In this document: positions 26,549 through 32,710 of the stretch, in pieces
Numbering within the stretch: position 1 is the stretch's first letter
How the letters are laid out: each line of letters opens with the position of its first letter
Assembly (NCBI GenBank): GCA_017609985.1
Contig: JAFCCW010000001.1
Span: 64,001-128,000 of the forward strand
DNA length: 64,000 nt
From: Candidatus Iainarchaeum sp.
Lineage (GTDB): Archaea > Iainarchaeota > Iainarchaeia > Iainarchaeales > JAFCCW01
Reading direction: 5' to 3'
Made by a program: the position numbers and the translations under genes
The notes under the pieces: model-generated
Told to the model about the DNA's origin: nothing
Databases searched by the model: none
Seen by the model: the letters and a program-made list of their open reading frames with translations, nothing else

Positions 26549-27496
26549 ATGGGAAAAGAAATAAAAGAAGTCAAAGACCTGCCAGGTGTTGGAACAACAG
26601 CAGCAGAAAAACTATTTAGTGCAGGATACAAAACACTTGAATCAATAGCAATAGCTTCCCCAATGGAGCTTATAGAAGTAGCTGGATTAGGAGATGGAAC
26701 ATCAGACAAAGCAATCAAGGCAGCAAGAGATGCTCTTGAAATGGGTTTTGAATCAGCAGACAAGCTTGCAGAGCGAAGAAAACAGGTTGGAAAGATCACA
26801 ACCGGAAGTGAAGCTCTTGATGAACTAATAGGCGGAGGAATAGAAACACAAAGTATTACCGAGGTATATGGAAAAATGGCAAGCGGTAAAACACAGTGGT
26901 GTTTTCAGGCAGCAGTGACTGCTCAGCTTCCAAAAGACAAGGGAGGGTTAGCAGGAAATGTACTGTACATTGACTCAGAAAATAGTTTCAGACCAGAAAG
27001 AGTATCCGCGATTGCAAAAGCACAGGGTCTTGACCCAGACAAGATTCTTAAAAATATTCTAGTTGCAAGAGCATACAATGCAGACCACCAAATTCTTCTG
27101 GCAGAAAAAGCAGTGGACATGATTAAGGAAAAAAACATAAAATTAGTAATAGTTGATTCTTTGACAAGCCAGTTCAGAGCAGAATATATTGGAAGAGGAA
27201 AGCTTGCTGACAGACAGCAAAAGCTAAACCAGCACATGAGAACACTAATGAAACTTGCTGAAATGCAAAACTGTGCATTGCTTGTGACCAACCAAGTAAT
27301 GGCCAGGCCAGACATCCTGTTTGGAGACCCGACAGCACCAGTAGGAGGGAATGTTGTAGGACATGCGTCCAAAACCAGGCTTTATTTGAGAAAAAGCAAG
27401 GACGAAAAAAGAATTGCAAAACTTGTTGATTCACCAAGCCTGCCGGACGGAGAAGCAGTTTACAGAGTTACAGAAAATGGAATAGAGGATATGTAA
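26549..27496 (+). CDS. radA: DNA repair and recombination protein RadA
   Basis: N-terminal HhH; GKMASGKTQ, YIDSENSFRPER, VVGHAS; no intein. Confidence 0.97.
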   Translation: MGKEIKEVKDLPGVGTTAAEKLFSAGYKTLESIAIASPMELIEVAGLGDGTSDKAIKAARDALEMGFESADKLAERRKQVGKITTGSEALDELIGGGIETQSITEVYGKMASGKTQWCFQAAVTAQLPKDKGGLAGNVLYIDSENSFRPERVSAIAKAQGLDPDKILKNILVARAYNADHQILLAEKAVDMIKEKNIKLVIVDSLTSQFRAEYIGRGKLADRQQKLNQHMRTLMKLAEMQNCALLVTNQVMARPDILFGDPTAPVGGNVVGHASKTRLYLRKSKDEKRIAKLVDSPSLPDGEAVYRVTENGIEDM

Positions 27497-27507: not shown

Positions 27508-28236
27508 TTATATTCCTCTAACTCCAACTTCCCCAAAAAAAGCTTCTAGCGTTTCAGCAAAAGCAGTTAGCTGAGCAGGAGTAAAAGAATTTTTATTCTC
27601 AAGAGATCTGTCAATCATTCTTGAATCACTCTTGAATTGCTGAAGAAAAAAACGCTTTGGTTTTCCAGATAAAGAAAGAGAAGAAATCCATTTGCCAATA
27701 GAAACAAGTTTTTCCTCAGAAATAAATTCAGGGATAACAGTTGTGCGAAATTCATAGTCAGGAGCAGAATTTATTATAAGAGAAATAGACTGTTCAATCA
27801 GTTCAGAATCAACTTCAACTCCTGCAACAGCAGAGTAATCATTTTTTGGAGCTTTAACATCCATTGCCACATAGTCAGCAAGAGATTTTGAAAAAACTTT
27901 CTTCAAAACAGATGGATTGCCACCATTAGAATCAAGCTTGACTTCAAACCCAAGGTCTTTGACTCTTGAACAAAAATCCAAAAGCCCTGGCTGAAGAGTT
28001 GGTTCTCCGCCAGTGATTGCAACCCCCTGCAACCATTTCTTTTTAGACTCCAAAAAAGAAAAAAATTCTTCAACCGGAATCCTTGGTTCAGAAGGCTTGC
28101 CTAAAGCAAGTTCAGGATTGTAACAAAAAGGACAGCGAAAATTACAAGAATTAGTAAAAACAACACAGGAAAGTTTTCCTGGAAAATCAAGCATTGAGGT
28201 TCGGAGAACCCCGCGAATATCAAAATCAAGACTCAT
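27508..28236 (-). CDS. nrdG: Anaerobic RNR activating enzyme (radical SAM)
   Basis: SMLDFPG, CNFRCPFC, TGGEP, YEFRTT. Confidence 0.93.
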   Translation of the reverse strand: MSLDFDIRGVLRTSMLDFPGKLSCVVFTNSCNFRCPFCYNPELALGKPSEPRIPVEEFFSFLESKKKWLQGVAITGGEPTLQPGLLDFCSRVKDLGFEVKLDSNGGNPSVLKKVFSKSLADYVAMDVKAPKNDYSAVAGVEVDSELIEQSISLIINSAPDYEFRTTVIPEFISEEKLVSIGKWISSLSLSGKPKRFFLQQFKSDSRMIDRSLENKNSFTPAQLTAFAETLEAFFGEVGVRGI

Positions 28237-28244
28237 AAAAAAAC

Positions 28245-28508
28245 CTAGTGAAGAGCCTTTTCCACCTCTTCTTTTGGAGGAACTTCAGATTTCCAGGAAA
28301 CAAGCTCAGTACCAGAATCATCCACTACAACAAGAGAAGGAGTGCCCATAATTCCATACATTGCTGCTTCTGCAAGACCCTCTGGATCGCCAATATTTAG
28401 ATAGCTAACTGAAACACCACTCTGTTCAAACTCTTTGCCAAGTTCCTTTGCAGATGGACATTTTCCACAGCCTTCTTTCCAAAAAACAAGCAACTTTATA
28501 CACAACAC
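28245..28508 (-). CDS. Thioredoxin/NrdH-like redoxin
   Basis: CGKC active site, GLAEA..YGI.GTPSL; located inside the nrd operon. Confidence 0.88.
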   Translation of the reverse strand: MLCIKLLVFWKEGCGKCPSAKELGKEFEQSGVSVSYLNIGDPEGLAEAAMYGIMGTPSLVVVDDSGTELVSWKSEVPPKEEVEKALH

Positions 28509-28513
28509 CTTCT

Positions 28514-28663
28514 TTAGATTTTGTAGTTTCCAGCTTGACGGTCAACAAACTCTGCTTTTTTTCCAGAATTCCAGTTTTGTATTTTGCTATAATATCCAAC
28601 AACTCTTGTTATTCCTTCGACATTTTCACTTCCACAGTGAACACATTTTGCTTTTAATTCCAT
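28514..28663 (-). CDS. Stand-alone NrdD glycyl-radical domain, 49 aa (not in ORF track)
   Basis: MELKAKCVHCGSENVEGITRVVGYYSKIQNWNSGKKAEFVDRQAGNYKI; SD GGAGGTG; TGATG overlap with the nrdD stop. Confidence 0.88.
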   Translation of the reverse strand: MELKAKCVHCGSENVEGITRVVGYYSKIQNWNSGKKAEFVDRQAGNYKI

Positions 28664-31122
28664 CAACACACCTCCGCGACGGACTTTTTTGATTTATTAG
28701 ATTTATCTAATTTTCCAGAATTTTCTTTTTTAATTGAAACCTCTTTTTCAGTTGAACTCTCCTCTTCAGCACCCTGCACAGCAGAGCGAACAAAACCACG
28801 AGAAATCTTGTCACAATCCTTACAAATAGTAAATTCAGGAGAAATAACTATCTGCGCACTAGGAGTATTGTCCCATGTTCTCTTAACAAGCTCAAAAATT
28901 GCTGCTGGATCCGGCTTTTGTTCTCCAAGAAAAACATGAGTTATTGCGCCAGATTCAATGAGTGTATTGAACTTCGCTTGTTTATCAATTCTTTCGATTA
29001 TATCAACCTCTGAATTAGGAGAAAAATGAACCGAGTTTGTATAATACACATTCTCAGAAGCAACATCGCCCTGAACATAGTCTTTAACAAAATCAAAACG
29101 TCTTAAATCAACTTTAGCCATTCGAGAAGACGCACTCTCAGCAGGAGTTTCCTCGAGAGTAAACTTTAGCTTGTGTTCTTTTTCAAGAGCCTTTACCTTG
29201 AGATACATTGCAGAGATTATCTTGAGACCCTCTTTGTAAGCATCTTCAGACTCATGAAGTTCTTTGTCAGTCAAATACTTAACACACTCATTCAATCCAA
29301 TTATCCCAATAATATAAGTTGCCTTGTCAGTATCAACATATTTTCTGCCATCTTCAGCAACTTTTCCAATCTGCCAGAGAGGCATGTGAGGAGCAGACAT
29401 AAGCTGGTCAATAAATTTCTTCTTTTGGAGATGTGCCTTTACAGCTAAATCCATCATGGCTTCAACAGTTTTAATTGTTTTACCAGTGTTCTTGGATGAC
29501 TTGAAAGCAGCCTGAGGCAAATTAATGCTTACATTCTGAAAACCACAAAAGCGCATGCTCTCAGGATGCAACACCATATAATTGTCAGTAATTTCAGTGC
29601 GAAGTCTGCAACACATTGAAAGATTTACCTCATCGCGATCAAAAATAAAATAAGGAGAACCATTCTCAGAAGCAATTACACAAGCTTCGCTCAAAAGCTC
29701 GCGCTGTTTTGGATCATCAAAAGAATCCTGATTAACATGAAGATCAAATTTTGGAAATGGAAAAGGAAGATTGTTTCTGTCACCCTCTCTCCAAACCTCC
29801 ATCAAAGCCCTGCAAAATTGCTGAGCCTCTGCTTCAAAATCAAGATAAGTTAAAATCTTTCCATCAGCAGACTGCTCAAGCTCGCCGTTCTTGTTTCTGG
29901 GAACCTCATCAAGTTTCTCAATCGATCCGTCCTTCTTTTCAAGCATATATTTTCCGCCAGGACCGATGGCAGGAACATTCTTGAGATAAGAAGGGATTCC
30001 GGTGTGAATATTAAAATCAATAAAGAGTGTCTGGCCACCTCTAGAAAATGCATTCTGAGAACAAGAAAAAATCAAATACTGTGCTTCCTGCTTCATTCGC
30101 TCAAAAGACATTCCGCGCATTAGCGGCGCATAAAAAAGATTAACATAACTTATTCCAAGAGCCCCGGCATAGTAAGCCTGCATGGAAGCAAGAAAAGTGT
30201 TAAGATGGCCAGTGAGAGTCTGAGCATGCTTTGCGGGCGCAGAAACAGTTGAAAGATTCTCAAGCTTGAGACCATATTTTTTGATATACTCCAAAGAATG
30301 CGCAGAACAATAAGTTCTTATTGGATAACCCAAGTCATGAAGGTGAATTGCACCCTCAAGATGAGCCTTAGAAATATCTTTAGAAAAAAGATTATTCAAC
30401 GCAAACTGTTTCAGGATATTTTCCGCAATCGAAAGATTAACTGCTTCAGGATTGTTAGCAGCAACATTTGAATTCTCATTACTCATAGAACTTATGAGTT
30501 GTTTCAAATCATACACCGGCATTCCAATAAGAGTCTGCTTCTCAAGTTTTGACTGATAACCACGATCAAATAATTCAGTGTCAACCAAAGCACGAATAAG
30601 AGAAGTTGAAATCTTCTTCAAACCAGATTTAAAAATTCGCTCCTCAACAGCATCAGCTATTTCCTCTGCCTCAGCAAGAGGAATGCTTGCCTCTTTATGG
30701 AGCGCAGAAGCAATCTTGGATTTACTCCACTCAAATAATTCATCCTTGGAAGAGGGCTCCACCAACAAAAGCAAGTCAGTAGAAGAAGCCTTGCCCCTTA
30801 CCTTTTTCCTTACTTGAATCTTAGAACGCATTCTCTTGCGCTCGTCCCTGTAAAGAATAAATGCTTTTGCAGTCTTTGCCCTGCCATCTTCAATAAGAAT
30901 TTTTTCAACAGAATCCTGAACCTCCTCTATGGTTGGGCTCTTGCCGCCAAAACTCCGCCTTAAATCATTAGTAACTTTTCTGGCAATATTTCTTGCAGAA
31001 CCATAATCCTTGCCACCGACAGACTTAGCAGCCTTAAAAATTGCATTTGCAATTTTCTCCTCATTAAAAGGAACAAACCGCCCGTCTCTTTTTTGAACAT
31101 TAGTGAAAAATTCTTCAACCAT
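28663..31122 (-). CDS. nrdD: Class III ribonucleotide reductase large chain lacking the Gly-radical loop
   Basis: ATP-cone (VQKRDG), second cone-like region, IHLHDL, SRGGQ, SMCCRL, ETPAES, YYTNS; ends after CKDC and a charged tail. Confidence 0.93.
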   Translation of the reverse strand: MVEEFFTNVQKRDGRFVPFNEEKIANAIFKAAKSVGGKDYGSARNIARKVTNDLRRSFGGKSPTIEEVQDSVEKILIEDGRAKTAKAFILYRDERKRMRSKIQVRKKVRGKASSTDLLLLVEPSSKDELFEWSKSKIASALHKEASIPLAEAEEIADAVEERIFKSGLKKISTSLIRALVDTELFDRGYQSKLEKQTLIGMPVYDLKQLISSMSNENSNVAANNPEAVNLSIAENILKQFALNNLFSKDISKAHLEGAIHLHDLGYPIRTYCSAHSLEYIKKYGLKLENLSTVSAPAKHAQTLTGHLNTFLASMQAYYAGALGISYVNLFYAPLMRGMSFERMKQEAQYLIFSCSQNAFSRGGQTLFIDFNIHTGIPSYLKNVPAIGPGGKYMLEKKDGSIEKLDEVPRNKNGELEQSADGKILTYLDFEAEAQQFCRALMEVWREGDRNNLPFPFPKFDLHVNQDSFDDPKQRELLSEACVIASENGSPYFIFDRDEVNLSMCCRLRTEITDNYMVLHPESMRFCGFQNVSINLPQAAFKSSKNTGKTIKTVEAMMDLAVKAHLQKKKFIDQLMSAPHMPLWQIGKVAEDGRKYVDTDKATYIIGIIGLNECVKYLTDKELHESEDAYKEGLKIISAMYLKVKALEKEHKLKFTLEETPAESASSRMAKVDLRRFDFVKDYVQGDVASENVYYTNSVHFSPNSEVDIIERIDKQAKFNTLIESGAITHVFLGEQKPDPAAIFELVKRTWDNTPSAQIVISPEFTICKDCDKISRGFVRSAVQGAEEESSTEKEVSIKKENSGKLDKSNKSKKSVAEVC

Positions 31123-31501
31123 AAAACACACCTGTTTTTTTCAAGCATAATAGAGATAGCTTTTTTGTTTATAAAAGATTACTAAGAAAAGACAACAGTT
31201 AGGAAAAAGCAGTAAACCAAGGTTAAAAGTTCGGAAAGCTAAGGGATATTGCTTGTTTGCGCATTGAGAGTTTGTTTTTTTTCCTAAAAAAACCAGTTTC
31301 CCAAGAAAATACTAAAAAACAGCAGTAAAAAACAACAAAAAGCAAATAAAAAACAAATGAAAAACAAAACAAAAATAGAATAAATGCAAATTAAGCAGGG
31401 TTAGATGAAAAGAGAAACTAGAATTGAAAACCAAAAGCCAGAGGACAGAGGCTAAAAACTAAACTCTGAAAACTGAAAACAGAAATTAATAAAACAAAAA
31501 A

Positions 31502-32398: not shown

Positions 32399-32710
32399 GT
32401 GGATGAAGAACGAATTCCAGTCAAAGAACTAATTGAACAGATGAGACGAGAGCTAATGCAAGATCAAGGAAGCAAAGCAAAGCCAAAAACAACAAAACCA
32501 AAGAAAAGTGTGAAAAAGAAGAGAAAATCAAAAACAACAAAAAAAAGAAGCCCAGCAAAAAAGAAAAAAACCACTAAAAATAAACCAGTAGCAAGAAAAA
32601 AAGCAACAAAGAAAAAGAAAACAGCGAAGAAAAAAACAGCAACAAAGAAAAAAACAACCACTAAAAGAAAAACAAGATGCAGAGCCAAACCCAGAAAAAA
32701 GAGAAAATGA
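32399..32710 (+). CDS. Lys-rich histone-H1-like protein
   Basis: SD AGGTG; short helical N-terminus then KKTT/KKAT repeats. Confidence 0.65.
   Translation: MDEERIPVKELIEQMRRELMQDQGSKAKPKTTKPKKSVKKKRKSKTTKKRSPAKKKKTTKNKPVARKKATKKKKTAKKKTATKKKTTTKRKTRCRAKPRKKRK

Follow-up and report, generated by a model that had tools for sequence, protein, structure and literature searches.

The stretch analysed here, hereafter the window, comprises 64,000 nucleotides (nt) of the archaeon Candidatus Iainarchaeum sp. (order Iainarchaeales; GCA_017609985.1, contig JAFCCW010000001.1, positions 64,001 to 128,000). It carries an operon for a class III ribonucleotide reductase (RNR), an oxygen-sensitive enzyme that supplies the precursors of DNA, in which the catalytic protein, NrdD, is divided between two genes, a large one for the catalytic barrel and one of 49 amino acids (aa) for the loop that bears the radical glycine. 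We are confident that this two-gene class III RNR is genuine and conserved, and that its products are a functional pair of separately translated chains. Four closely packed genes, all on the minus strand, make up the operon, which has the following features (window positions):

28663-31131, minus strand: nrdD large subunit, 822 aa from a GTG start (Pfam NRDD and ATP-cone; TIGR02487)
28666-28812, minus strand: variable tail of the large subunit, rich in K, E and S (residues 771-819), its final codons including the small-gene SD
28690-28684, minus strand: in-frame A_AAA_AAG heptamer, a possible -1 slip site, probably incidental
28675-28669, minus strand: Shine-Dalgarno (SD) sequence GGAGGTG, 5 nt upstream of the small-gene ATG
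28514-28663, minus strand: nrdD small subunit, 49 aa (NRDD positions 521-560, E 2.9e-12)
28245-28508, minus strand: thioredoxin-fold redoxin with a CGKC motif (Thioredoxin_3, E 1.6e-6)
27508-28236, minus strand: nrdG, radical-SAM activase (Radical_SAM, Fer4_12; TIGR02495 NrdG2)

The two nrdD genes and their partners

The large open reading frame (ORF) matches Pfam NRDD over model positions 1-517 of 562 (382.9 bits against a cut-off of 26.2, E 3.7e-114), the Pfam ATP-cone in two stretches (E 2.9e-29) and, in NCBIfam, TIGR02487 over positions 1-534 of 581 (354.3 bits against a cut-off of 326.35). With its catalytic barrel above the cut-offs of these curated NrdD models, the protein is a member of the class III RNRs. 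Numbered from the ATG at 31122 (819 aa), the chain keeps every invariant column in an alignment of 18 sequences of its subfamily; these columns include C504, C505 and R506 of the finger loop MCCRLR. The frame terminates as the original prediction had described, in ...ISPEFTICKDC followed by a charged tail (49 residues, rich in K, E and S) and a TGA. The CKDC motif provides the first zinc-site pair, C767 and C770. Read to its TGA, the ORF lacks an RxxGY glycine loop; the loop is not on the same polypeptide as the barrel but is present in trans.

The missing part is encoded by a separate small ORF (ATG at 28663-28661, stop at 28516-28514), which lies in the -1 frame relative to the large ORF. 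The TGA of the large gene (28665-28663) has one base in common with the ATG of the small gene, giving the TGATG overlap that had been predicted together with the GGAGGTG sequence and the succession of redoxin and nrdG genes, all of which were recovered. The 49-aa product, MELKAKCVHCGSENVEGITRVVGYY...WNSGKKAEFVDR (in full, MELKAKCVHCGSENVEGITRVVGYYSKIQNWNSGKKAEFVDRQAGNYKI), carries the second zinc-site pair, C7 and C10 (CVHC), so that the four zinc-site cysteines are divided two and two between the chains. Its radical glycine is G23 in RVVGY (codon 28597-28595), and a WNxGKxxEF motif is also present. All nine invariant columns of the small-chain alignment are kept (R20, V22, G23, Y24, W31, N32, K35, E38 and R42). 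NCBIfam has no model for the small protein.

The redoxin shows a weak NCBIfam match to the MJ0307-family thioredoxins and is presumed to be the reductant of this NrdD subfamily. The accompanying activase gene, nrdG, matches TIGR02495 (NrdG2) with 206.4 bits against a cut-off of 131.15. A search of the 1.16-Mb genome (86.6% complete) detected neither a class I/II large subunit (PF02867) nor a second NrdD, which leaves the split enzyme as its only detected RNR; the genome holds one small glycine-loop gene.

Conservation of the split

The only public run that contains the stretch is a hydrothermal-vent metagenome (Logan contigs), in which it is represented by a 95% relative (share 0.21). One contig of this relative covers 28536-28757 with 12 substitutions and no gaps. 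Differences in the small gene are confined to two synonymous sites, with none nonsynonymous. In nrdD there are 18 synonymous and five nonsynonymous differences, the latter all in the tail and none in the covered part of the barrel, while the redoxin gene has 11 synonymous and four nonsynonymous ones. Judged by these counts, both nrdD genes are shown to be under purifying selection. Two further stand-alone homologues of 48-49 aa, with 82% and 81% identity to the small protein, come from other sources.

In the best tblastn segment, the large protein shares 53-59% identity with the NrdDs of Clostridia, Ratteibacteria, Omnitrophota and Atribacterota, as well as of one Aenigmatarchaeota and one Promethearchaeati metagenome-assembled genome. 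Among the 24 nearest loci, 17 are fused, five meet a contig edge before the loop and two, both archaeal, are split. The fused ones have about 10 residues between the CxxC pairs. Both archaeal loci are split between the pairs: in the Aenigmatarchaeota locus (L034) CDDC is followed by a 14-residue tail, a 4-nt gap and a small gene in the +1 frame, and in the Promethearchaeati locus (L038) CRDC is followed by a 20-residue tail and, after a gap of 48 nt, a small gene in the same frame, separated by a stop. A metagenome contig (L056) is likewise split between the pairs; its small gene shares the -1 frame seen in the window, and 5 nt separate the stop from the ATG. The tails of the large subunits range from about 4 to 53 residues in relatives.

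The locus L056 came from a metagenome scan with the small protein that yielded 41 loci: 27 fused (six of them cut by the contig start), this single split nrdD, nine free-standing proteins of 90-125 aa and four without the motif. The free-standing proteins (L083, L085-L088 and L090-L093) combine an N-terminal domain bearing a KGWEW, KGWNW or RGWTW motif with a C-terminal NrdD-type glycine loop; the loops have no cysteine pair and no nrdD body is adjacent. By eye, the motifs of the upstream ORF in L085 and L086 resemble those of an HNH endonuclease, and the proteins may be viral.

The split runs through the whole order. From 60 of its genomes we took 29 loci, 27 of which have a glycine loop; 21 are split and six are fused. 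The frame of the small gene relative to the large one was computed for 20 of the 21 split loci (all except L010): three are in frame, nine at +1 and eight at +2. Measured from the end of the large frame, the small-gene ATG is found between -41 and +58 nt, with one at +300 (L012). A profile of the small protein gave 117 matches in 107 of 196 genomes of the order, 102 of them in frames of 37-102 aa, 14 in frames of at least 592 aa and one unclear. Neither an error nor a single conserved recoding site can account for such a pattern. The original prediction had taken the enzyme for an obligate two-chain RNR and had proposed looking for the same split and SD in homologous operons; the comparisons support a real and conserved split and a small gene with an SD and ATG of its own.

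SD-like sequences lie 3-16 nt upstream of the ATG in all 24 small genes examined (score of at least 4, reached by 10.6% of the background), and 23 of the 24 have a score of at least 5, compared with 2.6% of all 3,432 ATG triplets in the same loci. Where two ATGs were present the one with the better SD was taken, which slightly biases this result in favour of an SD. Because the SD often falls inside the final codons of the large gene, many large-chain tails end in ...EVK or ...EV. Many nrdD genes of the order (L016, L023, L025-L030 and others) have open frames of 770-1,500 aa in which the NRDD match falls into two or three pieces, as expected for inteins.

In the protein databases, the small-subunit profile matches at least 7,984 proteins of 23-142 aa (90% clustering), many of the short ones on contigs longer than 100 kb. 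A library clustered at 50% identity gave 6,068 matches, and the best 150 of the 6,068 are all 48-200 aa long.

For the phylogeny we used 47 large chains with the glycine-loop part cut off (FastTree, unrooted, with local Shimodaira-Hasegawa-like supports). The two deepest branches (support 100) are labelled here subfamily A, to which the NrdD of the window belongs, and subfamily B, the usual NrdD of the order. Subfamily A has two ATP-cones and CxxC/CxxC zinc motifs and is fused in bacteria; the window, L034 and L038 form a clade (support 99) among the fused bacterial genes. A redoxin homologue stands between the glycine loop and nrdG in 18 of the 25 subfamily-A loci examined and in none of the 28 subfamily-B loci. 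The zinc motif of subfamily B is CPxH...CP(x)C, and its chain is interrupted inside the second ligand pair or directly behind it: some small chains start with M..KCG.K and hold one ligand cysteine, while others carry the loop alone, the large chain retaining CPxC. In the window the cut is about nine model positions earlier, between the pairs.

The NrdD of the window belongs to a different subfamily from the usual one of the order, and that subfamily is fused in bacteria; therefore fission appears to have occurred at least twice, in two NrdD subfamilies and at zinc-site positions that are close together yet not identical. The lineage of the window appears either to have replaced the enzyme of the order by an operon, acquired horizontally, in which the split already existed, or to have undergone a new split. 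Within subfamily B the fused or split state changes at least five times on well-supported branches of the unrooted tree, and fused B genes with long linkers (L004, L005 and L008) look like precursors or re-fusions.

The predicted complex and competing explanations

A structure prediction of the two chains together, proposed at the outset as a check, combined residues 200-819 of the large chain, aligned in 18 rows, with the small chain, aligned in 24 rows, and a zinc ion. The score was 0.90 (0.90, 0.91 and 0.90 in the three runs), compared with 0.00 for the best of three controls; among 80 solved complexes 58 reach this mark, and among 110 mismatched pairs only 2 do. The partner pLDDT (predicted local distance difference test) is at least 84, and contacts agree between runs to at least 76%. 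Residues 505-506 and 759-770 of the large chain are predicted to contact residues 3-26 and 32-49 of the small chain, with strand pairing between large 761-769 and small 14-20, contact of large C767 with small C7, and the glycine loop placed against the CC finger loop at 505-506. As a model, the complex is an indication of likeness to one-chain NrdD rather than of binding.

Taken with the motifs, these contacts suggest how the enzyme may work. The chain of 819-822 aa would supply the catalytic barrel with its ATP-cones, the CC finger loop and the first CxxC pair, and the 49-aa chain would be translated from its own SD and ATG. Translation of the two is probably coupled, since the large gene runs into the SD and ATG of the small one. 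On docking, the NVEGITR strand of the small chain would pair with ISPEFTIC of the large chain, C7 and C10 would complete a zinc site that bridges the chains, and the RVVGY loop would insert into the barrel beside the finger-loop cysteines. NrdG would then place the radical on G23 of the small chain, from which it would move to a finger-loop cysteine at each turnover, and the adjacent redoxin probably re-reduces the active site.

Several points weigh against a functional pair of separately translated chains. The independent sequence consists of contigs of a 95% relative at a depth of 3.3, and the tree evidence comes from FastTree alone, unrooted and with local supports. Contig ends have surely left some of the short database proteins as mere fragments. 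The large frame of L012 (G032:C2) has an extra in-frame TAA about 300 nt upstream of the small gene; this large gene may represent decay, error or a second break. The complex prediction may owe its pass to solved one-chain NrdDs (8P23, 9D3X, 4COI, 4U3E and 1H78), and it was made with our own alignments and a zinc ion riding along, unlike the setting in which the method was calibrated. Finally, A_AAA_AAG is the sole in-frame X_XXY_YYZ heptamer in the 2,466-nt gene, and it lies where a -1 slip fuses the frames.

This heptamer is the basis of the alternative that survives best, in which programmed -1 frameshifting at A_AAA_AAG yields a one-chain NrdD with a long linker between the cysteine pairs, as the main product or as a by-product. 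The -1 frame is shut by TAA TAA until one codon before the heptamer, leaving an open stretch of 30 nt that holds the slip site, and, as at dnaX-type sites, the heptamer is in frame and the -1 frame is open downstream of it. The 95% relative reads A_AAA_AAA here (the substitution at 28684 is synonymous and leaves the frames unchanged). There is also a small hairpin downstream (-19.7 kcal/mol, z -1.97; 6 of 200 shuffles fold as well). However, it begins 1 nt past the heptamer, off the usual spacing of 5-9 nt between slip site and hairpin, and is made of the SD and start region; neither a dnaX-type stimulatory element at the right spacing nor conservation of the slip site in L034, L038 or L056 was found. 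So strong an SD with its ATG is to be expected only if the small chain is initiated separately, and would be pointless for a fused product. In a lysine-rich tail an AAA-AAG pair is not unlikely by chance: across the window, frames of at least 200 aa, non-coding ones included, contain 4.75 X_XXY_YYZ and 2.05 A_AAA_AAN heptamers per kb. The nearest split relatives (L034, L038 and L056) have other frame relations or lack a slippery site, none being found in any of the three, and the split occurs in three frame relations across the order. The original prediction had itself raised the caveat that the two ORFs would be joined by a -1 shift, or if one A were missing from the sequence; this stands as a description of the site, and its force is weakened by the split relatives that have no such site. 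We consider frameshifting as an explanation improbable, and the chance that a fused by-product is made in this organism is likewise small.

A sequencing or assembly indel in the A-run, with a continuous true gene, is very unlikely. Homopolymer runs are error-prone and one extra A would join the frames, but the contig of the 95% relative is free of gaps across the region, stand-alone small proteins at 81-82% identity occur in two other sources, and L034, L038 and L056 are split at the same point. Moreover, about 60 residues would link the zinc pairs of the fused form, compared with about 10 in its fused bacterial relatives. Least credible of all is a decaying pseudogene in an organism that draws deoxynucleotides from a host: the genome is small (DPANN archaea, which have genomes of this kind, are often host-dependent) and L012 carries its extra stop, but the invariant columns of both chains are intact, differences to the relative strain are nearly all synonymous outside the tail, nrdG and the redoxin gene are intact, and the layout persists throughout the order.

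Two further ORFs lie on the plus strand near the operon. One, of 315 aa (26549-27496), is convergent with it, and by eye its product resembles an archaeal RadA recombinase. The other, of 103 aa (32399-32710), consists almost entirely of K, T, A, R and P (KKKRKSKTTKKR...) and is either a very basic low-complexity protein or a spurious frame.

Relation to known systems and the possible purpose of the split

One-chain NrdD/NrdG systems share the barrel, the finger loop, the zinc-site cysteines, the RVxGY loop and the activase with the system described here. Solved one-chain NrdDs include those of Prevotella copri (8P23), Thermotoga maritima (4COI and 4U3E) and phage T4 (1H78), together with 9D3X. 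The small chain aligns to the last 35-40 residues of solved NrdDs and the large chain matches the same structures; in every one of them the glycine loop and its zinc-site cysteines are on one chain, whereas here the cut falls between the CxxC pairs, and a gene of its own encodes the last 49 residues. The double-cysteine finger loop and the operon redoxin recall the redoxin-dependent class III RNRs of the Neisseria bacilliformis and Methanosarcina barkeri types, a subtype to which, from its motifs, the window enzyme probably belongs. To our knowledge, the characterised redoxin-dependent class III RNRs are one-chain enzymes.

GrcA/YfiD of E. coli is an autonomous glycyl-radical spare part for pyruvate formate-lyase. 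Like it, the small subunit is a small protein that stands free and is a homologue of the parent enzyme's radical domain. It differs in that this genome has no loop-bearing parent enzyme. Since the small chain has the enzyme's only glycine loop, it is an obligate subunit and not a spare. In the parts available to us, the literature on glycyl radical enzymes (GREs) places the radical glycine at the C-terminus of the catalytic chain and has GrcA/YfiD as the sole known free-standing radical domain. A 2026 review (PMC13450708), in the sections accessible, names formate lyases as the only GRE class with identified spare-part proteins and gives small subunits for HPAD, BSS and MASS alone. The protein described here matches Pfam NRDD, and not the glycine-radical family of the pyruvate formate-lyase type.

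A split RNR of another class is NrdJa/NrdJb of Pseudomonas aeruginosa, also present in phage P60, with its C-terminal part on a second gene. In contrast to the enzyme of the window, it is a B12-dependent class II enzyme with no glycyl radical. The accessible parts of two papers name NrdJa/NrdJb (PMC9669993 and PMC3653736); the former, an analysis of RNR extensions from 2022, has the class III alpha subunit end in the glycyl radical domain. The latter reports interrupted nrdD in 6 of 128 phage genomes, with introns, inteins and homing endonucleases. As far as its available text goes, these splits are mostly mobile elements that are spliced out or unexplained fragmentations, and none is presented as a separate glycine-loop subunit that has a ribosome-binding site to itself (PMC3653736). 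In the portions of Lundin et al. 2015 (PMC4390871) at hand, "split" refers only to splits in trees.

What the split is for can be framed in two ways. The radical tip may be a consumable cartridge: after cleavage of the small chain by oxygen at its glycine, a chain of 5-6 kDa would be swapped and re-activated by NrdG, and the 90-kDa body spared. On this view the extra small genes of some relatives would be spare cartridges, controlled by a Fur/PerR-type regulator along with rubrerythrin, even where NrdD is a fused protein. We regard this cartridge as a tentative idea, and real exchange of the small chain after such cleavage as possible but rather doubtful. The chances seem about even that the module instead docks by itself and that its fission is tolerated as an essentially neutral change; split genes are a known trait of small-genome archaea.

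Some genomes carry small genes in addition to the one at nrdD. Nine of the 107 matching genomes hold two or three small-gene matches, and 12 loci were taken from six of these nine. In four genomes (G044, G098, G099 and G094) a Fur-family regulator gene lies upstream of a rubrerythrin gene that is followed by an extra gene of 48-49 aa; this small gene overlaps the stop codon of the rubrerythrin gene in all but G094, where it follows within a few bases. The Fur and rubrerythrin families were confirmed by Pfam in G044 and G098 and by tblastn in G099 and G094. These extra small-gene loci, all unlinked to nrdD, are:

G044, L097:2725-4207, adjoined by MsrB
G098, L098:2078-3147, followed by a CDGSH iron-sulfur protein
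G099, L100:3039-4108
G094, L102:3068-4132, in a genome that also has a fused NrdD

The Fur-rubrerythrin-small-gene operons provide circumstantial support for a replaceable module, whereas the window genome, with its single small gene, lends the idea no direct support. In G094 the free small gene exists alongside a fused NrdD (723-aa frame), a loop-bearing parent of the kind that the window genome lacks; as far as gene content can tell, this is the GrcA/YfiD situation in an RNR. Extra copies in G119 and G114 give no such hint, and those of G114 reflect two split nrdD loci. The two extra small genes of G119 (L106:867-1007 and L107:2221-2370) lie between an ArsR-type regulator and an FTR1 iron permease and adjoin a DUF1858/COX1-like membrane protein.

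We found no description of a separate NrdD glycine-loop subunit in the full-text literature searched, as far as its text was available (supplements and subscription journals lay outside this scope), and the two-gene layout has apparently not yet been described in print. What appears to be new, from comparison of genomes, is that the split runs through a whole archaeal order and arose in at least two NrdD subfamilies, and that some relatives seem to keep a spare small gene in an oxidative-stress operon. For annotation, genes of 40-60 codons are readily overlooked or taken for fragments, which makes the large genes seem truncated.

If the small chain is indeed exchanged, class III RNR would be the second GRE family with spare-part repair, and the repeated independent fissions, in at least two subfamilies within one archaeal order, would have been selected for exchange. 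A natural, widespread and obligate two-chain NrdD is, in addition, a ready system for the question of activase access, namely whether the 49-residue substrate is activated free or docked. It also allows one to ask whether the zinc site holds the radical domain in place, and whether subunit exchange repairs an anaerobic RNR killed by oxygen.

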